Made by a program: the position numbers and the translations under genes
In this document: positions 1 through 41,948 of the stretch, piece by piece
How positions within the stretch are numbered: the first letter of the stretch is position 1
Layout: the number at the start of each line of letters is the position of its first letter
The notes under the pieces: generated by a model
Databases searched by the model: none
The model's input: only the letters and a program-made list of their open reading frames with translations
Told to the model about the DNA's origin: nothing
Assembly (NCBI GenBank): GCA_028712125.1
Contig: JAQTQS010000001.1
Span: 3,526 to 67,525, forward strand
DNA from: Candidatus Altiarchaeota archaeon
Lineage (GTDB): Archaea; Altiarchaeota; Altiarchaeia; IMC4; SCGC-AAA252-I15
Direction of reading: 5' to 3'
Length of the DNA: 64,000 nt

Positions 1-365
1 TCGCGGCCGGCCTTGCGCCGAAGCTGTGCGTCTATGACGGACTGATACAGCGCAGGATTGTGGCGATACCTGCGGAAATCAGCGGTTTCGACGCGACTGA
101 GATTAAGGTCGCGAACAAGCCGGGGACGCTCTCGGACGAGGCGTTTTCGGCCGTTAAGCGGGCTCTTTCGTCGGAAGGCCGTTTCAGGATTTTGGTCGAC
201 GGGGAGGAGGACCTGCTGGCGCTGGCTGCGATAATCCATGCCCCAGAGGGAGCAGTGGTCTTGTACGGCCAGCCGAACGAGGGCCTTGTCGGGGTCCTTG
301 TTGACGGTAGGAGCATTGGCAACGCGCGTTCACTAGTTGATGAGATGGTTGAAAATGGATGTTGA
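1..365 (+). CDS. 5'-truncated CDS; COG1909/DUF359-like protein (archaeal GTP-dependent dephospho-CoA kinase family)
   Basis: The reading frame is open from base 3 (no upstream stop), so the gene begins outside the window. The C-terminal sequence ...RILVDGEEDLLALAAIIHAPEGAVVLYGQPNEGLVGV resembles DUF359. It sits immediately upstream of the S24e-S27ae pair, which is the conserved archaeal neighbourhood for COG1909. The family assignment is from memory, not from a search. Confidence 0.45.
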   Translation, partial: AAGLAPKLCVYDGLIQRRIVAIPAEISGFDATEIKVANKPGTLSDEAFSAVKRALSSEGRFRILVDGEEDLLALAAIIHAPEGAVVLYGQPNEGLVGVLVDGRSIGNARSLVDEMVENGC

Positions 366-690
366 GATAATAAGCCAGCGGGATAACAGCCTGTTGGAGC
401 GCAAGGAAGTGAGGTTTAGGGTATCCTATCCCGGAGCCGGTGTTCCGGAGAGGCAGGAGGTGCGTAGCAAGCTTATAGCGGTCTTGGACGCGAGCAAGGA
501 TTTGACCGTGCTGGACCACCTGAAGCCGGAATACGGACGCAACTCCGCGGTAGGTTATGTCAAGATCTACGCGAACGCTGACGCCATGAAGGCCGAGCCC
601 GCCTACATGAACAAGCGGAATTTCGCCCCGAAGGAGAAGAAGGCTGCTGCCGAATCCGCGCCTGTAGCTGAAAAGAAGGAGGGCAAGTAG
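355..690 (+). CDS. rps24e: 30S ribosomal protein S24e
   Basis: [27 protein letters not shown]... is a typical S24e N-terminus. The size is right, and S27ae follows 3 bp downstream, which is the conserved archaeal operon. The track ORF begins at 337; the ATG at 355 is more likely. Confidence 0.85.
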
Positions 691-13014: not shown

Positions 13015-13791
13015 ATGTATCCAAACGAAGGGGAGTTTATACTCGGCACGGTCCAAAGCCTGTTCAAGCAGGGAGCGTTCATAACCCTCGACGAATACCC
13101 GGGCAAACGCGGGATGCTGCCGCTGTCGGAGATATCGCTCAAATGGGTGCGCAACATCCGCGACTACGTGAAGGAGGGCCAAAAGGTCGTACTGCTGGTG
13201 CTTCGCGTGGACCCGGAGAGAGGCCACATCGACCTGTCGCTGCGCAGGGTTAACGACGCACAGAGAAAGCAGAAGCTGCAGGACATCAAACAGGAGCAGC
13301 GGACTAAAAAGATTCTCGAAATGGTGGCGGCCGAACTGAAGGTCAGTTTCCAGGAAATCTCGACGAAGGTCACATGCGAACTCACACTGGAATACCCGAG
13401 CATCTACAAGGCGCTTGAGGCCATAACGCTGGACAAGGCTGCGGCAGACAGGTTCAAGATTCCGGACAAATGGAAGGCCAAGCTCGTCGAGATAACATGC
13501 AAGAGCATAAAGCCGCCGTACGTCGAAATCAACGGGTATGTGGAGCTGCACAGCTACGAGCCTGACGGGATTGACGTCATAAAGGAGTCGCTCCAGAGGA
13601 TGTCCGGCAATACGAGCGACGCGGAGATAGGCATAAGCTACATATCGGCGCCCATCTACCGCATACACGTCAAGGCGCGCGACTACAAGACAGCGGAAAA
13701 GGCGCTCCAGCATTCCGCGGACTTGGGCATTGCCTACGTTGAGGAAAAACACGGCACCGGCGAATTCCACCGGGAGCTCAAGAAACAATGA
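13015..13791 (+). CDS. translation initiation factor 2 alpha subunit (aIF2alpha)
   Basis: There is an S1 domain (GEFILGTVQSL...GMLPLSEIS) followed by a helical domain. Nop10 follows, which is the conserved archaeal arrangement. The track ORF begins at 12958; the internal ATG at 13015 gives a canonical length. Confidence 0.85.
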   Translation: MYPNEGEFILGTVQSLFKQGAFITLDEYPGKRGMLPLSEISLKWVRNIRDYVKEGQKVVLLVLRVDPERGHIDLSLRRVNDAQRKQKLQDIKQEQRTKKILEMVAAELKVSFQEISTKVTCELTLEYPSIYKALEAITLDKAAADRFKIPDKWKAKLVEITCKSIKPPYVEINGYVELHSYEPDGIDVIKESLQRMSGNTSDAEIGISYISAPIYRIHVKARDYKTAEKALQHSADLGIAYVEEKHGTGEFHRELKKQ

Positions 13792-13943
13792 GCATGAAAA
13801 AATGCACGTCCTGCGGGACATACACGCTCAAGGCTGAATGCCCGGCATGCGGAAAGATTGCTGCAAGCCCCCACCCCGCCCGGTACTCGCCAAACGACAA
13901 ATACGGCGAATACCGCAGAAGGATGAAAAAAGAAAACATTTGA
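13788..13943 (+). CDS. nop10: H/ACA ribonucleoprotein complex subunit Nop10
   Basis: This 51-aa ORF is absent from the track because it is under 60 aa. MSMKKCTSCGTYTLKAECPACGKIAASPHPARYSPNDKYGEYRRRMKK is a Nop10 zinc ribbon. Its ATG overlaps the aIF2alpha stop as ATGA. Confidence 0.8.
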   Translation: MSMKKCTSCGTYTLKAECPACGKIAASPHPARYSPNDKYGEYRRRMKKENI

Positions 13944-13946
13944 ACG

Positions 13947-14711
13947 ATGGAAAACTCGATCATCACAATCCTGGAAAAACCCGACCTGAAAAATCCGATA
14001 CTCATAGAAGGATTGCCCGGCATCGGGCTTGTCGGAAAGCTTGCCGGCGACCACCTGCTTGAAGAGCTCAAGGCGAAAAAGATAGCCGAACTGCACTCCC
14101 CGTACCTGCCCCCGCAGGTGAACATACAGGAAGACGGCACGATAAAGCTCGTGAACATGGAATTCCACAGCTGGACCAACGGCACGCAGGAGGTAATACT
14201 ACTCACGGGCGACTTCCAGGGGATAACCCCGGACAGCCAGTACCAGATGGCTGAAAAGACCATTGACTTCGCAAAACAACTGAACGTCAAACGCATCTAC
14301 ACGCTCGGCGGGCTGGCCACCGGGAACATCACTCAGAAACCAAGGGTGTTCGGCGCCGCAACCAGCAAGAAAACCGTCGAGGAGCACCAGAAATACGACA
14401 TAACGTTCAAAGGAGACGGCGCGATATTCGGAGCCTCCGGACTGCTGCTCGGACTCGGCGCAAGAAGCGGCCTAGACGGCGTCTGCCTGATGGGCGAGAC
14501 GCACGGCCAGATAATAGACGCAAAATCCGCAGAAGCCGTGCTGCGGGTGCTTACCAAGATACTCGGAATCGAAGTGGACATGACAGCCCTCGAGAAAAAG
14601 GCCAAGGACACTGAAAAACAGATGAGCCAGATAACCAAGATGATAGCCGGCCACCAGCAGAACCGCAAGAGCGAGGACTACCCCGGCGAGGCCACCAACT
14701 ACATACGATAG
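13947..14711 (+). CDS. PAC2-family proteasome assembly chaperone (COG1938/DUF75)
   Basis: ILIEGLPGIGLVGKLAGDHLLEEL matches the family. It occupies the conserved position after aIF2alpha and Nop10. Confidence 0.6.
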   Translation: MENSIITILEKPDLKNPILIEGLPGIGLVGKLAGDHLLEELKAKKIAELHSPYLPPQVNIQEDGTIKLVNMEFHSWTNGTQEVILLTGDFQGITPDSQYQMAEKTIDFAKQLNVKRIYTLGGLATGNITQKPRVFGAATSKKTVEEHQKYDITFKGDGAIFGASGLLLGLGARSGLDGVCLMGETHGQIIDAKSAEAVLRVLTKILGIEVDMTALEKKAKDTEKQMSQITKMIAGHQQNRKSEDYPGEATNYIR

Positions 14712-15197: not shown

Positions 15198-15261
15198 TTT
15201 TTCTTTCTTTGAACCCAAGGGCCTTTCTTTCTTTTTTCGCAAAAAAGAAAGAAAGGGGCTT
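15198..15261. repeat. 64-nt direct repeat, copy 1 (the tRNA 3' trailer); copy 2 is 15324-15387 inside the intron
   Basis: tttttctttctttgaacccaagggc[c/a]tttctttcttttttcgcaaaaaagaaagaaaggggctt occurs twice, 126 bp apart, and the copies are identical except for one substitution. Copy 1 abuts the tRNA discriminator base and supplies a T-tract on the minus strand, which looks like a terminator. Confidence 0.85.
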
Positions 15262-15305
15262 GCGGGGGACGAGGTTCGAACTCGCGCAGGCCTTCGCCAC
15301 AGGAT

Positions 15306-15387
15306 AACTTAAGTTCCTTGGGTTTTTTCTTTCTTTGAACCCAAGGGCATTTCTTTCTTTTTTCGCAAAAAAGAAAGAAAGGGGCTT
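15306..15387 (-). other. tRNA-Leu intron (82 nt) containing two hairpins
   Basis: The interruption falls between anticodon-loop positions 37 and 38. The intron holds the perfect 16-bp inverted repeat CCTTTCTTTCTTTTTT-GCG-AAAAAAGAAAGAAAGG and a second hairpin CCTTGGGTT...AACCCAAGG. Confidence 0.6.
15324..15387. repeat. 64-nt direct repeat, copy 2 (the core of the tRNA-Leu intron)
   Basis: See copy 1. This copy forms the 5' two-thirds of the intron. Confidence 0.85.
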
Positions 15388-15448
15388 CCTAAGTCCTGCT
15401 CATTTGACCAACTCTGACACCCCCGCGTAAGTAAAATTGGGATGTTCC

Positions 15449-15460
15449 CGCTTTTTATCG
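15449..15460 (-). promoter_or_regulatory. putative TATA box for tRNA-Leu
   Basis: On the minus strand ATAAAAAG lies 25-32 nt upstream of the tRNA 5' end at 15426. Confidence 0.35.
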
Positions 15461-15818
15461 GGACTTCATATTATAGGGATTCCAGTGAATAAAAGCCTAT
15501 TACGAGGCTTCTGTATGCGTTTTTTCGTTTTCCAAGCCCGCTGGTTTGGGTTGGAGTATCAAGCACTGTGCTTGATACTAAGGAGAATCAAACACCCTGC
15601 TTGATTCTCCTCTTTCAGCCTTTTCAGTAAGGTATTTAGACAACGAAAAATAGAAGACGCAAGCCCTAAAAACAAAAAAACGTCTACATGCCCTGTTGAA
15701 TCCTTACTCTGAGAAAGCCAAAACCTATCAAGAGGCTAGGTTGCACCAGAACAAACAAACGACTTACAGAAACAAACGAAAGGGCTTGACGTTGTATCCG
15801 GTTGGGTGTACATTAATC

Positions 15819-16289
15819 CTACTTTGGCTTTAATTGCTTATCTTTGGCTGACTTTCTGCATGGAGATTTACTTTTTTTAAATGCTGTTAAGATAGTTTTT
15901 TGGTCAAAGGAATTAAGCTCTAGCCTATTGAATTGCTGAAATACATAAACCTGGTATCTAGGAGTTTCTTTCTTTTCTTTGGATTTCTTTTTTATCAGCT
16001 TCTTTAAGGTATCTAGTATTATCGTAATAATGCCTGCCTTGGCAAGTTCTCCTAAAAAATCAGAAATAATTTCTGGACCACACTCATGCCGGATTAATGT
16101 AATACGAATTCTGTCTTTTGGACTAATTACTTCAATATTCTTGTAATCAATATCCTTTACGTTTAAATCGAGTTTTTCAAGCTCCTGAACAAATTCATCA
16201 AATTGCGCTCCTTTTAAGTCTAAGTAGTGATCTTTTGTTTTGAACCATATTGCCACACCCGGACTTTTACATTTATCACAATAGTCCAT
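15819..16289 (-). CDS. hypothetical protein (island)
   Basis: The ORF is AT-rich with a Lys-rich C-terminus and no motif. Confidence 0.4.
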   Translation of the reverse strand: MDYCDKCKSPGVAIWFKTKDHYLDLKGAQFDEFVQELEKLDLNVKDIDYKNIEVISPKDRIRITLIRHECGPEIISDFLGELAKAGIITIILDTLKKLIKKKSKEKKETPRYQVYVFQQFNRLELNSFDQKTILTAFKKSKSPCRKSAKDKQLKPK

Positions 16290-16464
16290 AAATAGAATAT
16301 TCTACCTAAAGAAGATAAGACAGTTTTCGAGTAAACCACCCCGAAGGGAATAGACGTCCGTCAGGATAGGTAGGACATATTATCCTTGGGAAGTCGATGC
16401 TGTATGCCCGGTTTAGCCGTTAAGGGCGTCCAGCATTTAGCAGGGAATAGAAGCTATTCGCTGG

Positions 16465-17040
16465 TTAGCTTTTGGTTGAATCCGGGCTTGAACCGTGCTT
16501 TGTTTTTGATTCTAGGCTTGAATCGCCTTGAAAATATGAGGCGATTTTATCTTGAACCGTTCGCCTAGTAAAAGTCGCACCGTATTCTTGATAATGCTCT
16601 AAATTATCCCAGTTGGTGACAACAAAGAAGTAATCAGCATAATTCCCTAAGACAACCATCTTAGGCATAAGCTCTTTTTCGCTTTTTCGGGTGGCTTCGA
16701 CCTCCACAGCTATCCAGCGACCTTCATCCAAACCGAATGTAACGTCCGGTAATCTCGTAAGATTGTATTCTACCTTAGGAGTGTATTTCCGAATCTCGTC
16801 GTATATTATGTTCCAAAGGATGAAATGGGCGTCCGACTCGCCAGTCTCATTCCTTACCAGAAAAGCAGTCCCATTGCCTTGAGAAAACCCCGGATCCCGG
16901 ACTTCATGAAAACCCAGACTTTTAAGTATGTCAAGCCGGACCTTATTCAACTCACTCTTAACATGAATCTTCCGCTCTGTATTAAACCGCGTATGGTCTA
17001 TACCTGCTATCCTCGCCATAAATATAACACTAGACGACAA
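16465..17040 (-). CDS. hypothetical protein, possible PD-(D/E)xK nuclease fold
   Basis: DVTFGLDEGRWIAVEVEATRK gives a D...EVE..K spacing like restriction-endonuclease-like cores. This is a weak assignment. Confidence 0.3.
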   Translation of the reverse strand: MSSSVIFMARIAGIDHTRFNTERKIHVKSELNKVRLDILKSLGFHEVRDPGFSQGNGTAFLVRNETGESDAHFILWNIIYDEIRKYTPKVEYNLTRLPDVTFGLDEGRWIAVEVEATRKSEKELMPKMVVLGNYADYFFVVTNWDNLEHYQEYGATFTRRTVQDKIASYFQGDSSLESKTKHGSSPDSTKS

Positions 17041-17168
17041 ACGACTTGTCGATTAAGAGAAAGCAAATTGACATTATCCAAAAGTACAACTCAAAAAATA
17101 CAAACTAGCATCGTACGAAATACGATAATACGAAAAAGGCAAATTTAAGGCCGCATGTAACTTAACTA

Positions 17169-17747
17169 ATGGGAAATAATATGCAAATAGCATGTTTGGG
17201 TTGGGGCTCTCTAGTTTGGGATCCTAGGGAACTGCCCATAAGAGGGATATGGTTTGAAGACGGCCCCTTCTTACCGATTGAATATGCACGACAATCCAAA
17301 GACGGGAGAATCACTCTTGTTATTGTTGAGGGTAGAACCTTAGTTCGTTCTTTGTGGACACTCCTCAATTGCAACGATTTAACTGGAGCAAAAAAAGCAT
17401 TAGCAGATAGAGAAGGGATAAAAGAGGATGATATCCCTAAAGATATTGGCTTTTGGCCTAGTGATGATAAGAAAAGCGGTAAATGTACTGATTCCATACC
17501 TTTGTGGGCTAAATCTCACTCTCTTGATGCAGTTGTATGGACAAACTTACCCCCTAGATTTGATGGCATAAATGGCAAAATACCAACTGTAGACGAAATA
17601 CTAAATTACTTTAACAGTAGTCTAATGCCAATAGAAAAAAGACGTCTTGCGGAGGAGTATATTACGAAAACCCCGCCCCAAATAGATACAGAATATAGAA
17701 GGGAGATGATATTAAGATTAAACTGGATAACTCGGCGTACGTGTTAA
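17169..17747 (+). CDS. hypothetical protein, ChaC/gamma-glutamylcyclotransferase-like N-terminus
   Basis: IACLGWGSLVWDP resembles the ChaC/GGCT motif (FGYGSLMW). This is a weak assignment. Confidence 0.3.
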   Translation: MGNNMQIACLGWGSLVWDPRELPIRGIWFEDGPFLPIEYARQSKDGRITLVIVEGRTLVRSLWTLLNCNDLTGAKKALADREGIKEDDIPKDIGFWPSDDKKSGKCTDSIPLWAKSHSLDAVVWTNLPPRFDGINGKIPTVDEILNYFNSSLMPIEKRRLAEEYITKTPPQIDTEYRREMILRLNWITRRTC

Positions 17748-17841
17748 GTAAGGGATATCCACACTACAGAGCATTATGTGTATCAGATAAAACAAGGGAT
17801 AAACTGGTGTTAGTGAAGGAATTATTTATACCTACTCCATA

Positions 17842-19392
17842 TTGCTATTTAGGTGTGGTGTGGGTCTGAAAGAATTAGGGGCTTCGGGGAGTAACTCTGT
17901 GGATTCTGGTGTAGAGAGGCGTATCCCAAATTTTAAGCTTGTAACTGTTATCTTATTTTTGTTATTTTCATTAGCTGTTCTATTCGCTATTCTGTTGTCT
18001 TATTTTATTTCATCTGATCTTGGAGATGTGGTGTTGGTAGTGTTTATATCATTGTTTCTATTACTCGCCATACCCGGTAGTGCTATTATCATTATAAGTT
18101 ATATCATAAGAGAGATTGTAAGAGAGAGAAGATTTGAAAAAGAACGAAAAGCAAAAGGATTAGTTAATTTTTGGGGTAAGTGGGGAACTCCAAAAGAGGT
18201 TGAAGAGTGGCGAAGGCAAGAGCAAGATAAACAACAAAAACAAAAAGAAACAATGGGGCTTGACATTGACATCATAGACAATACTGACGATATTCCCTTG
18301 AGGATTGAAAAGGCTCATGAAATATTAGAAAAATATTCTTCTGAACAACCGTATATTAAAGGTTTTGCAGAGAAGTATTACGATAGGATAGAGCAGTATA
18401 TTGATGATATTGGACATAATAAGATATTCCATAAAAGATGGTACCTTGATAAAATTAAAAGTTATGATAAGCAGAAATCCAAGAAAAATAAATGGGATAA
18501 CTGGGAGAAGTCCTTGATTGCGTCTAATAAAAAGGAATATCTCAAGGCTATTGAATTATGTTCAAATCCGTTGGAGATTCTTTTTCATTCTAATCCCCTG
18601 CCTTTCTATGTTAATGAAGAAACAACATCGTATAACGAAAAAAAATCGTATGAAGACAATGAATCATACTATAATGCTGAGCATCTGCGAGGGGAATTAT
18701 TAAAGTTACATCTGCTGCTACAAAATAAAGGATTTGATATTAATTACCACGATTTAGGGTTACTACTGCATTTCCAATTTCTAAATGCAGGGGCGAAACA
18801 ACTGTGGGATAAATTGAAATCTTACAACCCCTCTACATTTGATGATTATATTGATGCGTTTTTGGAGTATTATGGTGAATCCTATCTGCGGAAGACTACT
18901 CCATTTATAGTACTGCTGAGTTCAAAAGGTCTACCGTGTGACGATGAAATAGTGATTCTTGCATTAATGAATAAACATGACGAAGACGACCTCAAACAAC
19001 TTGAAAAATCGTTACTTTCTCGAAATAAAACAGTAAATATGTCTGAAATTGATGCATTATCTGGACACGAATTTGAGAGATTTCTAGGGCGGTTATTTGA
19101 TAAAATGGGTTACAAGGTGACTATAACCCCTAAATCGGGTGATTATGGAGCGGATTTGATACTCGAAAAACACGGTGAAAAGACTGCAGTACAGGCTAAA
19201 AAATGGGGCGGCAACATAGGAATTGAAGCGATACAACAGGTTGTGACATCTAAGAAGTTTTATGATTGCGATAAGGCTATGGTTGTTGGAACTAGCATCT
19301 ACTCAAAAAATGCCGAAGAATTGGCTTTTAGGAATAAGATAGAACTTGTTGACAGGGACAAACTACAGCGATTGATAGAGAAATACATGTAA
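17842..19392 (+). CDS. membrane-anchored protein with a C-terminal Mrr-type restriction endonuclease catalytic domain (Mrr_cat)
   Basis: There are two N-terminal TM helices. The C-terminal ~130 aa read HEFERFLGRLFDKMGYKVTITPKSGDYGADLILEKHGEKTAVQAKKW, which matches Mrr_cat on the D and QxK motifs. The middle ~300 aa are Lys/Asp-rich with no assignment. Confidence 0.6.
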   Translation: MLFRCGVGLKELGASGSNSVDSGVERRIPNFKLVTVILFLLFSLAVLFAILLSYFISSDLGDVVLVVFISLFLLLAIPGSAIIIISYIIREIVRERRFEKERKAKGLVNFWGKWGTPKEVEEWRRQEQDKQQKQKETMGLDIDIIDNTDDIPLRIEKAHEILEKYSSEQPYIKGFAEKYYDRIEQYIDDIGHNKIFHKRWYLDKIKSYDKQKSKKNKWDNWEKSLIASNKKEYLKAIELCSNPLEILFHSNPLPFYVNEETTSYNEKKSYEDNESYYNAEHLRGELLKLHLLLQNKGFDINYHDLGLLLHFQFLNAGAKQLWDKLKSYNPSTFDDYIDAFLEYYGESYLRKTTPFIVLLSSKGLPCDDEIVILALMNKHDEDDLKQLEKSLLSRNKTVNMSEIDALSGHEFERFLGRLFDKMGYKVTITPKSGDYGADLILEKHGEKTAVQAKKWGGNIGIEAIQQVVTSKKFYDCDKAMVVGTSIYSKNAEELAFRNKIELVDRDKLQRLIEKYM

Positions 19393-19460
19393 CTGTATAT
19401 AGAACCGTTATAGAGTAGTTGGTTTTGTTGTCCTTGTCGTTTTTATAGTCGTGTGTCCAC

Positions 19461-19913
19461 GTGTGTACGTGGAAGATGAGCAAGAATGCGCCTAGCAACC
19501 GGGTTAATGAGCTTCGTATTGAGAAGTTGTTCTTACGCAGGGGCTTGGTTGAGAAATTTGAGTCCAAACGGCTTCTGGGGCTTGAGGATTTTGTTTCCTT
19601 CATCTGGCACAACCACCCTAATTACGTTTCTGAGATTACCTTGGAGTTCTTGAAAGAGCTTATTGTATACCGTCGGGAGGGCAAACCCTATACCCAGGAT
19701 GATTGGGTTAGGTTTTGCGGTAGGATGAGTAGTAGCAAGAGCAGCAGGGACATTGTCTTTCGTAAGCTCCTGTATCTTGGCTTGATTGAGAAGCATAATA
19801 AGACTCTCATGCGGTATGAGGTTAGGTTAAGCGACAAGTGGATTAACTACCTAGATTATATGGCTCAGAGCTGGATAGCGATTTGCGAGAATGAACCGAA
19901 GGTCAAACGATAG
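19461..19913 (+). CDS. uncharacterised winged-helix-like family protein (paralogue 1 of 4)
   Basis: It carries the family motifs: an N-terminal W..(D/E)F(I/V)..(I/F)..P block and a C-terminal (K/R)LLYLGLIEKHNKT block, shared with 19891, 20264 and 41409. Confidence 0.45.
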   Translation: MCTWKMSKNAPSNRVNELRIEKLFLRRGLVEKFESKRLLGLEDFVSFIWHNHPNYVSEITLEFLKELIVYRREGKPYTQDDWVRFCGRMSSSKSSRDIVFRKLLYLGLIEKHNKTLMRYEVRLSDKWINYLDYMAQSWIAICENEPKVKR

Positions 19914-20301
19914 CGTATTCATGAAGGATGAGGTCTTTAGGAGGGCTGACGAGAAGCAGCAGATTAGGCTCTGGGAGTTCATGCAACTGTTCTTCCCGGA
20001 AGAAACTAACAAGAAGCAGTTCGAATGCGCATTCACGTTCATGAAAACGCTCTTGGAAGCCAAAAGCGTTGAAAGCACCGGATTAAGGGATATTGTCGAG
20101 TCGGACTATGTGAACCTTACGACTATCGTACTGCCGAAGCTGGAGAAATTCGGCTTAATCAGGGTTACCGGCGAGCGGGGCAAGGGCAAAACCTATAAAA
20201 TAGAGCTGGACAAAATCTTTTCAGACCGGATACGATACATGGGCTTGGAATGGTTCAGAATTTATGCTAAATACGGTGATGTCTATGGTGGGCAATCATG
20301 A
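19891..20301 (+). CDS. uncharacterised winged-helix-like family protein (paralogue 2 of 4)
   Basis: IVLPKLEKFGLIRVTGERGKGKTYKIEL matches the family. It overlaps the preceding gene by 23 bp. Confidence 0.45.
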   Translation: MNRRSNDSVFMKDEVFRRADEKQQIRLWEFMQLFFPEETNKKQFECAFTFMKTLLEAKSVESTGLRDIVESDYVNLTTIVLPKLEKFGLIRVTGERGKGKTYKIELDKIFSDRIRYMGLEWFRIYAKYGDVYGGQS

Positions 20302-20851
20302 GGGCAAGGGCATACCCTCAAGGCATGCCCTATATTTCCCGGAAAAAGGAGGACGCAAGTATGGAACCAAAATATGGGACTACTCCTACCGCTGGAACAT
20401 TGACGACTTACTGGGGTTCGTGTTCCCTGGTGAATTCAGCCCAGTATGCCATAAAATAGCAGTAGACTACCTGGAATACCTGGTTGAAAAAGGCGAAGTA
20501 ACCTACCAAGACAAAGTCGAATTCTGCAACCAACACAATTACAGCATAAACACGCTCAACAAACACATAATACCCAAACTATACCGATTCGGACTGATTC
20601 ACAGGACCAGGGAATTCCCTAAAACCACAGCTTGGAATATCAAAAGCAAAAGACGAAGCTATGAACACGAAAGCCAGCAATTCAGCTCATTCCTAAGGAA
20701 AATAGCAGACGAATGGGAAGCCATACTCAACACCGGAAGACTTAAAAGAAAACACGAAAACCAAAAACAAAAAGAAACACAAAAAGAAATCGAAAAACAA
20801 GAAAAACAGGACTGGGAACGATGGGAAAAGGAACGGGCTTTAGGATGTTAA
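20264..20851 (+). CDS. uncharacterised winged-helix-like family protein (paralogue 3 of 4) with a Lys/Glu-rich C-terminal tail
   Basis: WNIDDLLGFVFPGEFSPVCHKIAVDYL...NKHIIPKLYRFGLIHRTREF aligns along most of its length with the 41409 ORF. Confidence 0.5.
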   Translation: MLNTVMSMVGNHEGKGIPSRHALYFPEKGGRKYGTKIWDYSYRWNIDDLLGFVFPGEFSPVCHKIAVDYLEYLVEKGEVTYQDKVEFCNQHNYSINTLNKHIIPKLYRFGLIHRTREFPKTTAWNIKSKRRSYEHESQQFSSFLRKIADEWEAILNTGRLKRKHENQKQKETQKEIEKQEKQDWERWEKERALGC

Positions 20852-20891
20852 TATTAGATTACCACGCTTCTGAATATACCCAACGTGTTTT

Positions 20892-21146
20892 TTATTCTTC
20901 TGAACGTAATACGCCGGTTTCTCCTAAAAACTTTTTATCCGAATCATCTAAAGGCTTTTTCTTCAGCAATTTTTTAATAATTCCCTTCAACTCCACATTC
21001 TCCTGTTCTAAACTGCGACTGTGACTTAAAGCTTCTTCAGTTTTCTTTTTTTGCTGAATATACCCCCAAGGTGTCCCATCCATAAAATATTTATTATATC
21101 CATGACATATAAGCTTAAACGACAAAAATCGAGCTTCCACAAACAC
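20892..21146 (-). CDS. hypothetical small protein with coiled-coil character
   Basis: The ORF lies at the right edge of the island and has a Lys/Glu-rich heptad-like stretch. Confidence 0.3.
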   Translation of the reverse strand: MFVEARFLSFKLICHGYNKYFMDGTPWGYIQQKKKTEEALSHSRSLEQENVELKGIIKKLLKKKPLDDSDKKFLGETGVLRSEE

Positions 21147-21338
21147 CTTGCTTGATTCTTCCCTGAAAAGAAGTAGATTAAAACACCTTGCTTGATAGTC
21201 CGATAGGAGAAAAAGTAGTCTTGACGTTGAACCTAGCCGTGGTGGACGTCCGGTACGCCACTGGCGCTGTGGTATTGTGTGTTTTTTTGGGTGTCTTAGT
21301 ATATGAAACAGACGAATAAATATACTATTGCAGCAGGG

Positions 21339-21785
21339 TTATTTCTTTAGCATTTCTTCGAGTATTTCGGCTGCGTCTTTGACGTATTTAGGGCATTTGG
21401 TGGTTATGGCGTTTGTTTCGCTTGCTTTTTTAAAGCCTTCTGGCGTGCTTAGGTCGCAGCCGAGGAGGTCTTTGCAGTATAGCGAGCCGTTCCGGGCTTT
21501 GAATTCTTCGCTGAATTTTTTGACTGCATCGTATGTGTTTTCTTTCCTTTGCATGCCCGGCTCGTTTCCCAATGTGTGTTTAAGGCTTAGTACCATGAAT
21601 GCGCCGGTTACCGCGCCGCAAGTCAAGCCCATCCGGCCCATGCCGGCGCCGAAGGCGAGCGCAAGCCTGAGGGCTTCAGCCCGGCCAAGACCGTATTTCG
21701 GGCTGTATGTCGAGAGTATCGCCTGCGCGCAGTTCATGGCCGTTCCTTCCTTGAACGCGGTGACCGCGTCTTCGGGGGTTGTCAT
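21339..21785 (-). CDS. C_GCAxxG_C_C family protein (putative redox-active)
   Basis: MNCAQAIL...GAFGAGMG...TCGAVTGA...CPKYVKDAAEILE matches the C_GCAxxG_C_C pattern. GC-rich sequence resumes here. Confidence 0.55.
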   Translation of the reverse strand: MTTPEDAVTAFKEGTAMNCAQAILSTYSPKYGLGRAEALRLALAFGAGMGRMGLTCGAVTGAFMVLSLKHTLGNEPGMQRKENTYDAVKKFSEEFKARNGSLYCKDLLGCDLSTPEGFKKASETNAITTKCPKYVKDAAEILEEMLKK

Positions 21786-26686: not shown

Positions 26687-27364
26687 TTAGCCAACCAATT
26701 TTACTAGAAAATCTAGTGTATCTACTATTGCGGTCTTTGTTAATGTATTTTCAACGCTAGTGTCTTCGTAGTATATTATTTGGTTTCCAGTTATTTTGAG
26801 TATTGTATAATTTAGGTTCTTATCGAGTTTCTTTAGTAGTAAATCAGTTCTGTAAGGATTCATAATATTCTGAGCTTGGGTAAGGTTTGTGGTTTTTACA
26901 AAGAATTTTTCATCAAATGCTTTGCTATTTGTTTCATAATACTGGAAGTCAGTCATCTTAAATTTTGGCATACTGCGAACTTCATGGACATGACCTTTCC
27001 TGAATATTAGCGTGCTGCCATCACCAATATTCATTTTGTTTGGGAGGGTAATCTCAAGAGTTGGCTTGTATCGGCTAGTAGAAATATAATCCGTTGCCAC
27101 ATACTGCATTTTACCTTCAAATGAAAGGATAATTGTTATTGTTCTACCCTGATAGTTACCTTCTACCATTATGACTTTATTACCCTCTTGTATACTCCAC
27201 GTACCGCCTAACTCTTGAAATATCTTTCTTACATCTGTTTGAGCCTTTTGCTGTCCTTTCTTCTGCCATCTCCTTGCAAGGAGTAATATTGCAAGTACTA
27301 TGGCAACTTGTGCTATAACAGATATTACTTTCTTTAGTGTGGTTTCACCTATCAAAACAACCAT
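26687..27364 (-). CDS. hypothetical membrane-anchored protein in a small AT-rich islet
   Basis: It has one N-terminal TM helix. The low-GC segment runs about 26640-27460. Confidence 0.4.
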   Translation of the reverse strand: MVVLIGETTLKKVISVIAQVAIVLAILLLARRWQKKGQQKAQTDVRKIFQELGGTWSIQEGNKVIMVEGNYQGRTITIILSFEGKMQYVATDYISTSRYKPTLEITLPNKMNIGDGSTLIFRKGHVHEVRSMPKFKMTDFQYYETNSKAFDEKFFVKTTNLTQAQNIMNPYRTDLLLKKLDKNLNYTILKITGNQIIYYEDTSVENTLTKTAIVDTLDFLVKLVG

Positions 27365-41408: not shown

Positions 41409-41948
41409 TTGTTGCTTTTTAATAGTATCCTGATGGCAAGAGGGGGGAATCCCAATCCACGGCCGCCTTCCAGCGGGGGCATTCCGTCGGGCGAGAGCCT
41501 GTGGCTGCCTTCGCACTACGGCAGGGACGTTAAAGCGAAGGGGGGTTTGGACAAGACCGTGTTCTGGAACGTTTCGGACGTCTTGGACTTCATTTTTCCG
41601 AAAAAGTACCAGCCGACCTACCATGCGGTCTCCTGCAAGCTGATGGATTTAATATTGACGAAGGGCTATGTAGGCAAGAAGGACATCGGCAAGTTCATGA
41701 AGGACAACGCGGTCAGCAAGTCCACGCTGGAGAACAAGGTCATACCCAAGCTCGTAAGGCTCGGATTGCTGAAGCGCGAACGGGAGTTCAAGGCGGGCCT
41801 TGGCAAGGGGCGGGGGCTGGTCTTGTCCGAGTCTTTGACTTTCACGGCGTATCTGGACAGGGTGGGGTTCGCGTGGAACATGCTCGTATCGACAGCCCGG
41901 AAGAGGAAGCAGGATGACGCGATGGAGGGGCAACAGCTCACTCTTTAG
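41409..41948 (+). CDS. uncharacterised winged-helix-like family protein (paralogue 4 of 4; outside the island)
   Basis: TVFWNVSDVLDFIFPKKYQPTYHAVSCKLMDLILTKGYVGKKDIGKF...NKVIPKLVRLGLLKREREF aligns with the 20264 ORF. The true start may be at M9. Confidence 0.5.
   Translation: MLLFNSILMARGGNPNPRPPSSGGIPSGESLWLPSHYGRDVKAKGGLDKTVFWNVSDVLDFIFPKKYQPTYHAVSCKLMDLILTKGYVGKKDIGKFMKDNAVSKSTLENKVIPKLVRLGLLKREREFKAGLGKGRGLVLSESLTFTAYLDRVGFAWNMLVSTARKRKQDDAMEGQQLTL

Follow-up and report, generated by a model that had tools for sequence, protein, structure and literature searches.

A tRNA-Leu-anchored, integrase-less island carrying three tandem winged-helix genes as a probable member of an apparently undescribed modular island family in Altiarchaeota

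Introduction

A 64,000-nucleotide stretch of DNA from a Candidatus Altiarchaeota archaeon (GenBank assembly GCA_028712125.1, contig JAQTQS010000001.1; the whole stretch is hereafter called the window) contains, beside a tRNA-Leu(TAG) gene, an island of approximately 5.9 kb with eight open reading frames (ORFs; i1 to i8). Specifically, GC content calculated over 500 nt at a time falls to 0.32-0.46 across ~15.45-21.3 kb as compared with 0.51-0.61 on either side, and at 1-kb resolution this trough is the deepest and longest GC dip of the window, with its minimum (0.32-0.38) in the region of i4. The island thus combines a site at a tRNA gene with a base composition deviating from that of its host. 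Searches of the eight ORFs against Pfam, NCBIfam, PADLOC and PHROGs recognised no integrase, transposase or replicase. An initial annotation of this DNA had described an abrupt drop in GC content at a tRNA-Leu locus and an island devoid of integrase; sliding-window GC analysis confirms the former, intron-permitting ARAGORN finds the tRNA gene itself, and the Pfam, NCBIfam and PADLOC searches of all eight ORFs bear out the latter. The top relatives of the PAC2, Nop10 and aIF2-alpha proteins encoded in the window, at no more than 74% identity, are found in Candidatus Altiarchaeales metagenome-assembled genomes.

Comparison with other contigs and loci retrieved for this purpose (designated by L-numbers such as L059 and L095; L001 is an identical Logan contig) reveals a backbone composed of tRNA-Leu, a short dyad core, a non-coding left end module (L), a cassette of three winged-helix genes (the trio) and a non-coding right end module (R), while the remaining content is exchangeable and consists mostly of nucleases, restriction enzymes, toxin-antitoxin pairs and NTPases. 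This architecture, its recurrence, the finding that L and R are specific to trio loci, and at least one gain or loss of a cassette at a duplicated dyad core are all directly observed. We consider it probable (roughly 0.6) that the segment is one copy of a modular island family so far found only in Altiarchaeota. The family is apparently previously undescribed, as no description was found in the literature of such islands in Altiarchaeota, nor of AF_0843, a family weakly matched by one trio protein. Defence islands and tRNA-linked islands are themselves well known; what is new is the backbone of this island family, which is anchored at a tRNA gene and lacks an integrase.

The winged-helix trio

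The trio comprises i5 (19476-19913, plus strand, 145 aa from ATG), i6 (19891-20301, plus strand, 136 aa) and i7 (20264-20851, plus strand, 195 aa), with i6 overlapping both of its neighbours. Structure prediction, directed at the trio, recovered the three-helix bundle and beta-hairpin wing that define the winged helix, and i7 additionally has an N-terminal motif, FPEKGGRK..KIW, that is both conserved and disordered, as well as a C-terminal helix of 45 residues. Paralogy among the three is evident from hhalign comparisons (i5-i6, E 1e-7; i6-i7, E 2e-10) as well as from BLASTP (i6-i7, 1e-5), and the three tandem winged helix-turn-helix (wHTH) paralogues proposed at the outset are thereby substantiated in both kinship and fold over 19476-20851. 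The sole family assignment among them is a weak precomputed Pfam match of i5 to AF_0843.

As an overlapping three-gene cassette of constant order, the trio recurs on approximately 20 distinct contigs, encoding proteins 39-78% identical to those of the window. More than 10 loci carry an i5 homologue, 45-73% identical, in the corresponding place. There are 30 homologues of i6 and 50 of i7, and all those that are named belong to Altiarchaeota. The family is rare: an i7 profile retrieves just 69 cluster representatives among 1.84 billion proteins, and no trio relatives are found in IMG/VR. The GC content of the trio is 0.39-0.50 (0.44-0.50 in 12 of 13 loci) while local GC content of the host spans 0.40-0.55.

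Upstream of i5 lies a highly conserved promoter (19440-19475, plus strand; aligned in 8 loci) consisting of a TATA box, TTTTTATAG (19440-19448), a spacer of 7 nt, and a dyad, TCCACGTgtgtACGTGGA (19456-19473), followed by the ATG at 19476. Although the mechanically called ORF begins at a GTG at 19461, the true start of i5 is probably this ATG. From its position, TCCACGTgtgtACGTGGA probably serves as an operator for autoregulation, with a transcript that would be nearly leaderless.

Several further observations concern the trio and its relatives. The number of genes in the cassette varies, with four in L067 (2-1615), including an extra i6-like gene, and only two i6-like genes, without i5 or i7, in L063 (1500-2298). 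A stand-alone paralogue of i7 is present elsewhere in the window (41409-41948, plus strand; 33% identity over 150 aa); it has a native GC content of 0.54, adjoins a ThiI-like gene, and has neither an i5 or i6 partner nor an L or R module nearby. Extra TBP (TATA-binding protein) paralogues are encoded within a few kb of trio islands in three loci unrelated to one another, L059 (1655-1951), L091 (5422-5970) and L095 (16179-16724), and likewise in L096 and L097.

The L and R end modules

The left module of the island, L, is a non-coding element of ~280 nt (15545-15822, plus strand; nhmmer E 2e-63 and 1e-48) that contains two palindromes, A0 (15557-15577) and A1 (15586-15606), followed by a degenerate TATA-like stretch at ~15630-15650, the direct 12-mers ACCAGAACAAAC and ACAGAAACAAAC within 15743-15778, and CTTGACGTTG at 15785-15794. 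Matches to L are found in 10 further loci (L066, L077, L062, L079, L083, L088, L089, L091, L093 and L095), and the parts shared by the family include TATA-like boxes (TATATA, TTTAAAATA), an AAGCCC..AAAC block, the 12-mers ACCAGAACAAAC and ACAGGAACAAAAG approximately 22 nt apart, and a GCTTGACGTTGC block that echoes R.

The right module, R, which initially came to light through repeats shared by L063 and L060, is likewise non-coding (21139-21289, plus strand; nhmmer E 5e-25). In the window it consists of A0 (21139-21161), A1 (21176-21197), 22 nt, and then (T)CTTGACGTTG (21219-21229), with a distal part, CCTAGCCGTGGTGGAC...GGTACGCCACTGGC, that extends to ~21266, and lastly a run of seven T residues (21283-21289). 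Across the family (~125-150 nt) the order is A0, a linker TTCTYCCCTGAAA, A1, a spacer of ~24 nt, TTGACGTTG, CCTAGCCGTGGTGGAC or CCTTGCCCAGACAGCCAC, and GGTACGCCAC(T/A)GG, such that the backbone is composed of two related palindromic sites followed by TTGACGTTG...GCCGTGG...GGTACGCCAC. The R profile identifies 11 distinct full-length copies (E <=1e-18) in 8 other loci and weaker matches (E ~3e-6) in 2 more; these copies lie nearly always on the trio strand, 0.3-6 kb downstream of the trio.

With a cut-off of E <=0.01, neither profile yields a single match in a control set of 845,722 nt, composed of Altiarchaeota loci retrieved through PAC2, nor elsewhere in the 64-kb window, indicating that L and R are specific to the neighbourhood of the trio and are no general intergenic repeat. 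The possibility that the repeats marking the island ends are widespread intergenic motifs, which would have undermined their reading as element boundaries, is thus set aside.

Units in which L, trio and R are flanked by ordinary chromosomal genes beyond both ends are observed in the window, L062 and L095. The neighbours of these units are, respectively, tRNA-Leu and a C_GCAxxG gene (21339-21785, minus strand); an insertion sequence (IS) element and RNase J; and tRNA-Leu together with further cassettes. At other junctions R is followed by L after ~100-150 bp (L066, L077, L079, L088, L089, L063 and L095), and in L067 two R elements face each other in an inverted R-R abutment. Taken together, the flanked units and the R-L and R-R abutments suggest discrete units set side by side.

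Other identities were considered for these modules and rejected. As small-RNA genes, R and L return nothing at Rfam gathering thresholds and nothing credible by E-value; as structured RNAs, they give single-sequence folding z-scores of -1.0 to +2.0, and RNAalifold predicts no pairs for either R (14 sequences) or L (8 sequences). A leaderless small ORF in R is open in 11 of 12 copies, yet column entropies by codon position (0.87/0.98/0.96) display no periodicity. Lastly, blocks B-D of R, considered as a displaced 5' half of tRNA-Leu, bear no significant similarity to it, the single marginal match falling outside the tRNA.

Palindromic sites at the island ends

A repeat search identifies CAAACACCCTGCTTGATTCTCCTCT at 15589-15613, CAAACACCTTGCTTGATTCTTCCCT at 21140-21164 (88%) and AAAACACCTTGCTTGATAGTCCGAT at 21180-21204. 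A 13-nt core, CACCYTGCTTGAT, is exact at 15593, 21144 and 21184, and 8 matches are found when up to 2 mismatches are allowed, as compared with 2.4 expected and with none of 100 shuffles reaching 8. The initial annotation had described 22-bp direct repeats at the two ends (CAAACACCCTGCTTGATTCTCC at 15588-15609 and CAAACACCTTGCTTGATTCTTCC at 21139-21161), extra copies of their core and a palindrome, and all of these were recovered by the repeat and motif search. The palindrome, TATCAAGCActgTGCTTGATA, occupies 15557-15577, and the left 22-mer (plus strand) proves to be palindromic itself, corresponding to the A1 site of L (AATCAAACAcccTGCTTGATT at 15586-15606), while the right 22-mer corresponds to the A0 site of R.

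More generally, the A sites are 21-bp palindromes of the form N7-CA-N3-TG-N7; with up to one mismatch allowed, the 846-kb control contains 8 instances of this pattern. Within L or R of 7 loci they are paired with a start-to-start distance of 29 bp: in the window (15557/15586), L066 (7919/7948), L077 (10507/10536), L062 (12817/12846), L091 (7944/7973), L095 (2763/2792 and 11896/11925) and L088 (979/1008). The half-site varies by locus (TCAAGCA, TAATACA, GATAACA, ATTAACA, TACTACA) with dyad symmetry retained; both half-sites change together, as would be expected where proteins bind DNA as dimers. L and R of one unit use a matching half-site (TGCTTGAT in the window, TGTTATCAT in L095), and half-sites are often unlike across R-L abutments (L066, L077, L079). 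The conserved feature is therefore the architecture of the palindromes and not the sequence TGCTTGAT, which was ruled out as a universal trio-linked motif as it is not enriched in L059 or L060.

These data do not favour the initial interpretation of the 22-mers as attL and attR scars, given that the repeats are palindromic, paired, contained within the larger L and R modules, variable in sequence by locus, and without overlap with the tRNA; moreover, the exchange point in the sole pair of occupied and empty sites (described below) is another dyad core, outside L and R. The alternative offered at the same time, that the wHTH proteins would bind at the repeat core, is to be preferred, as the sites, within their modules, co-occur with the trio and are absent from the 846-kb control.

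Two variations in spacing were noted. An R copy in L076 (9755-9883, equivalent to L077 10269-10397) has a 10-nt insertion between site A1 and the TTGG/ACGTTG block, which corresponds to one helical turn, so that the two would keep facing the same side of the helix. In R of the window, the A0-A1 spacing is 40 nt instead of 29, about one turn more.

The tRNA-Leu anchor and the upstream dyad core

The outer left anchor of the island is tRNA-Leu(TAG) (15261-15426, minus strand), identified by ARAGORN with introns allowed and missed by both default ARAGORN and Rfam. It is interrupted by an 82-nt anticodon-loop intron (~15306-15387) at the canonical position, 37/38. Outside other islands lie tRNA-Leu(TAA) genes with introns of 137 nt (L091, 7602-7827), 20 nt (L095, 2539-2644) and 120 nt (L093, 10-212), and the flank of the L083 island carries a tRNA gene (13787-13916) with a Leu-like 5' half, called Ser by ARAGORN, with a 47-nt intron; in each case the intron interrupts the anticodon loop. 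The first L palindrome is located 131, 117 and 119 bp from the tRNA 5' end in the window, L091 and L095, respectively, amounting to a near-fixed distance outside the gene of the kind known from Tn7-type insertion. Genes past the tRNA are non-syntenic between loci.

Eighteen nucleotides upstream of the tRNA 5' end in the window lies a dyad core, GTTCCCG-ctttttat-CGGGAC followed by TTCAT (15444-15469). The same type of core, an imperfect inverted repeat with TTTCAC/T, is likewise placed beside the tRNA in L091, L095 and L083, and is found again 3' of R in L095, L077, L088 and L060. Its hairpin is weak as single-stranded DNA (z -2.0). We infer that the element at 15444-15469 is a candidate attachment or exchange core, and a 36-bp copy of it lies on either side of the cassette indel described below. 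In L095 the 9-kb trio island is bracketed by a 122-nt direct repeat of ~85% identity that starts 3 nt from the tRNA. In the window, a segment at 21282-21329 (plus strand) may be a degenerate second copy of the tRNA-side spacer at 15453-15501 (local alignment score 26) and, if real, would represent the outer direct repeat of the island, the equivalent of that in L095, a weak suggestion.

Two additional observations concern the tRNA genes themselves. Firstly, a 64-nt hairpin-forming sequence is present twice in the window, at 15198-15261 and 15324-15387, the copies differing at 1 of 64 bases; the tRNA-Leu(TAG) intron consists for the most part of one of them, and the other starts right after the discriminator base, in the 3' trailer, with the result that intron and trailer both open with AAGCCCCTTTCTTTC... 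No further copies occur in the window or the fetched loci. Secondly, all tRNA-Leu or Leu-like genes seen beside trio islands carry introns, and default tRNA and Rfam scans miss them.

Cassette turnover at the dyad core

Direct evidence of turnover is provided by three loci. A 2.1-kb cassette is present in L095 and L096, which were assembled independently of each other, and absent from L097, with flanks 99.6-99.96% identical. The cassette contains an L-type palindrome pair, a 125-aa gene, a 12-mer block and a 304-aa gene, and is bounded by two 36-bp copies of ATCCATTTACCC-N7-GGGCAAATTTCAC. L097 has one copy, and as this copy is a hybrid of the two, the exchange fell within GGGCAAATTTCAC. L095/L096 and L097 are thus a true pair of occupied and empty sites, and cassettes of the island family come and go between near-identical genomes.

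Cargo genes

The remaining ORFs of the island and the neighbours of the trio elsewhere have little in common. Among the former, i4 (17842-19392, plus strand, 516 aa) is composed of a hydrophobic N-terminus, a long middle region and a C-terminal Mrr_cat domain (PF04471; E 7e-31, residues 403-512), which is a full-length match and the sole curated family in the island. PADLOC matches i4 to the Mrr-like nuclease region of ZorD and to mREase_IV, and i4 alone among the cargo genes qualifies as a type IV (Mrr-like) restriction gene. The membrane-anchored Mrr_cat nuclease of the initial annotation is thus upheld by the domain match and the hydrophobic N-terminus, whereas two other assignments found no support: a PD-(D/E)xK protein for i2 (16465-17040, minus strand, 191 aa), which has no match in Pfam, NCBIfam, PADLOC or PDB, and a ChaC-like protein for i3 (17169-17747, plus strand, 192 aa), which rests on a GWGSLVW motif only. 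For i3, no match was obtained in Pfam, NCBIfam or PDB even with a 29-sequence family profile, and 28 homologues are likewise without a Pfam domain. Its family numbers more than 1,790 homologues of ~185-190 aa, 50-64% identical and lacking any Pfam domain, some of which are named Chloroflexota. As the family extends into Chloroflexota bacteria, i3 is marked as horizontally travelling cargo, and on its sequence relationships is best described as an uncharacterised, cross-domain mobile gene. Ktedonobacteraceae and Anaerolineales proteins are among its members, and C9, G11-W12-G13-S14-L15, E38, R41 and a W/R-rich C-terminus are invariant.

Of the other two, i1 (15819-16289, minus strand, 156 aa) displays only a sub-threshold match to DUF1398 and has no homologue in other trio loci, and i8 (20892-21146, minus strand), which is 84 aa long if translation begins at a GTG but 63 aa long, as called on L001, if it begins at the ATG at 21083, has no match in Pfam, NCBIfam or PADLOC. 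A homologue of i2, 50% identical, is encoded 1.8 kb upstream of the trio in L078, a contig unrelated to the window (62-571, minus strand), and i2 is the only cargo gene of the window that recurs with the trio.

Neighbours of the trio are wholly different between loci and are mostly of defence type. They include an SNF2-PLD helicase, an MmeI-type methyltransferase, GmrSD and a PDDEXK nuclease (L059); DpnI (JGI 3300075153); AAA_14 and a 931-aa STAND-like NTPase (L060/L062); SNase, two Holliday-junction-resolvase-like proteins, YdjM and UPF0175-DUF3368 (L065/L066); NTase-HEPN and PIN (L063); and PIN, ParE and AAA_14/DUF4143 (L095-L097). In none of the approximately 20 related islands examined is a recombinase, integrase or transposase recognisable. 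Recurrent ORFs of 361 and 368 aa, considered as a hidden integrase, are unrelated to each other and carry no recombinase signal, and the rve and DDE genes in L062 and L095 belong to separate IS copies.

Apart from the island, the window contains a second GC trough (0.34-0.38) at 26687-27364 (minus strand), occupied by a single 225-aa ORF with an N-terminal hydrophobic segment.

Interpretation and alternative explanations

The segment had been described at first as a decayed or non-autonomous integrated element or a defence islet. Its discreteness, foreign character, lack of an integrase and repeat-marked ends all agree with that description; the part that does not hold is the view of the 22-mers as crossover scars. 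According to the reading favoured here, the island would be a non-autonomous, horizontally acquired cassette unit sitting at the core upstream of tRNA-Leu. Palindromes at both ends, including the 22-bp repeats, would be bound by dimers of at least one trio protein, and the separate dyad in the trio promoter would serve autoregulation. The resulting protein-DNA complexes may mark and pair the ends of the unit, and would probably restrain the nuclease cargo. Strand exchange, for its part, would take place at the dyad core and be carried out by a recombinase encoded elsewhere in the genome.

Several points weigh against this reading. The mobility proposed is one with no recognisable engine, because none of the islands examined encodes a recombinase, integrase or transposase. 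Co-occurrence and dyad symmetry are the sole basis on which the A palindromes are regarded as putative binding sites of the trio proteins. The loci used to construct the L and R models were of the kind later searched with them, and the negative control alone is independent. In the trio loci L072, L078, L083 and L085, where 5-10 kb can be followed downstream, R is absent. An empty site for the island of the window itself was looked for and not found: the conserved left neighbour, a PAC2-like (proteasome-assembly-chaperone) gene at 13947-14711, retrieves 57 Altiarchaeota and DPANN loci with no downstream synteny, and the closest genome, at 74% identity in PAC2, has lost synteny. The outer direct repeat is statistically weak, with 25 of 1000 shuffles scoring as high as the alignment of 15453-15501 with 21282-21329 (p ~0.025). 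Lastly, L091 and L093, in which the trio lies beside tRNA-Leu with almost no cargo, fit a stable locus that collects insertions equally well.

The last point leads to the most serious rival, which we nevertheless regard as unlikely. It holds that tRNA-Leu, L, the trio and R constitute an old, vertically inherited regulatory locus in which L and R are promoter or operator regions and the trio proteins are ordinary repressors of neighbouring, often toxic genes; content would vary through a generic indel hot spot, and the difference between L095 and L097 would be a slippage deletion between short repeats. Such an explanation accounts for the resemblance of the palindrome pairs to cooperative operators and for the canonical TATA-like boxes found in L in most loci, but in the window L and R face no correctly oriented downstream gene (i1, i2 and the C_GCAxxG gene are on the opposite strand), and the R-L and R-R abutments with their unit-matched, locus-specific palindromes are hard to explain as promoters. 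That the trio promoter has an operator of its own, and that the stand-alone i7 paralogue is of native GC content, would suit repressors resident in the chromosome, whereas the GC content of the trio within the islands is independent of that of the host. Likewise, the minimal loci and the absence of a recombinase from every island would be natural in a fixed locus, while the lack of synteny among genes past the tRNA and past R, together with an indel that ends exactly at duplicated dyad cores, would not.

Far less probable is the model originally proposed, in which a classical integrase-type element entered at tRNA-Leu, leaving the 22-mers as attL and attR, and has since lost its integrase. The direct orientation of the 22-mers at both ends, their adjacency to a tRNA gene, the low GC content and the missing integrase are all as that model would have it; yet the repeats are paired palindromic sites that form part of larger conserved modules, and they are separated from the tRNA 5' end by 160 bp on its upstream side and have no sequence in common with the tRNA. 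No tRNA fragment is present at the far end, where blastn with both tRNA exons finds the gene alone and blocks B-D of R are without significant similarity to the 5' half of tRNA-Leu; none of the ~20 related islands has kept an integrase, and the exchange point actually observed lies elsewhere.

An integrated plasmid or provirus, with R-spacer-L as the attP or origin of a circular replicon and the trio as replication or partition proteins, is similarly improbable. In its favour, R-then-L junctions beside integrated L...R copies show the permuted order that a circle would produce, iteron-like direct repeats and A-rich tracts are present in L, and the L059 island adjoins type IV secretion system (T4SS)-pilin and MJECL32/33 genes. 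On the other hand, no contig is circular by terminal overlap, the trio has no relatives in IMG/VR, PHROGs match nothing in the island apart from the Mrr domain, and neither a replicase nor an ATPase or capsid gene accompanies the trio as a conserved partner. The palindromes also often differ across R-L junctions (L066, L077, L079), as would be expected of two adjacent units and not of a single circle.

A bolder extension of the favoured reading would view the tRNA-Leu core, L, R and the trio as a new archaeal platform for cassette capture, functionally analogous to integrons or Tn7, in which recognition of the ends, and perhaps recombination as well, would depend on the trio and not on a known integrase or transposase family. 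We put this forward as a speculative proposal that is more likely wrong than right by a wide margin.

Known islands have backbones made up of integrases, transposases or host genes conserved on their flanks. In the present family, conservation is confined to two non-coding ends with co-varying palindromes, a dyad in the promoter-proximal region of tRNA-Leu, and three rare, lineage-specific winged-helix proteins. If the trio truly reads the ends, these islands would offer a tractable system for investigating how foreign genes for nucleases and toxins are taken up, ordered and silenced in archaea, and for asking which enzyme moves integrase-less cassettes. In addition, the combination of trio, L and R provides a practical marker for variable defence regions in Altiarchaeota metagenome bins.

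Comparison with known systems

Islander-type islands and archaeal elements of the SSV and pTN3 types encode a tyrosine integrase and are located in the 3' half of a tRNA gene. Like these, the present island is a discrete, compositionally deviant segment beside a tRNA gene, with direct repeats, defence cargo and tandem accretion of units at one site. Unlike them, no member of the family has an integrase, the ends are large modules with palindrome pairs, and the island lies on the 5' (promoter) side of the tRNA, 117-131 bp off, with repeats that contain no tRNA sequence; neither an integrase gene nor att repeats that include part of the tRNA with a displaced distal fragment are found.

Integrons, which are reportedly present in archaea (Ghaly et al. 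2022), share with the island family a fixed platform with exchangeable cassettes, separators in the form of imperfect inverted repeats, richness in toxin-antitoxin and defence genes, and presence or absence of cassettes between close strains. The differences are that IntI is lacking, the sites are without the R''/R' (GTTRRRY) signature of attC, the platform genes are three winged-helix proteins, and the cassettes, which occur in either orientation, each bring promoter-like L modules with them. Neither IntI with attI nor attC sites are found: GTTRRRY fits only TTGACGTTGAAC of the window and none of the other copies of the dyad core, and no conserved single-strand structure, as would be expected of attC, is detected at the dyad-core or R sites.

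Tn7-family elements that target tRNA genes occur in archaea (bioRxiv 10.1101/2025.07.27.667033). Similarities to these include a fixed short offset outside the tRNA, ends with multiple repeats that, in the present case, may be bound by protein, and defence-rich cargo. In the Tn7 family, sequence-specific DNA-binding proteins select the site, and the trio would be their counterpart here. In contrast, no homologue of TnsA, TnsB, TnsC or TniQ accompanies the island, and its ends do not consist of TnsB sites arranged as terminal inverted repeats; by Pfam, the window contains no tnsB (DDE/rve), tnsC (AAA+) or tniQ/tnsD gene, and no target-site duplication was identified.

Two further systems invite comparison. 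IMEX elements exploit the host Xer recombinase at dif, and, as in those elements, the islands described here have no recombinase of their own and form tandem arrays split by short dyad cores, such that recombination would have to come in trans. Their site is the region upstream of tRNA-Leu, not dif, and the core, of approximately 8-7-8 with variable arms, shows no demonstrated similarity to archaeal dif. The C proteins of restriction-modification systems are helix-turn-helix (HTH) regulators with tandem palindromic operators, and the likeness extends to small HTH proteins beside nuclease genes, palindrome pairs of fixed spacing and a dyad in the regulator's own promoter. The trio differs from them in comprising three paralogues, not one, and in having its putative sites at the island ends and not before the nuclease gene, and no sequence relationship between the trio and C proteins was found.

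Taken together, while lacking the features by which each of these families is defined, the island resembles tRNA-linked and defence islands in its general form, integrons and Xer-exploiting elements in the turnover of its cassettes, and the Tn7 family in its offset from the tRNA and its multi-site ends.

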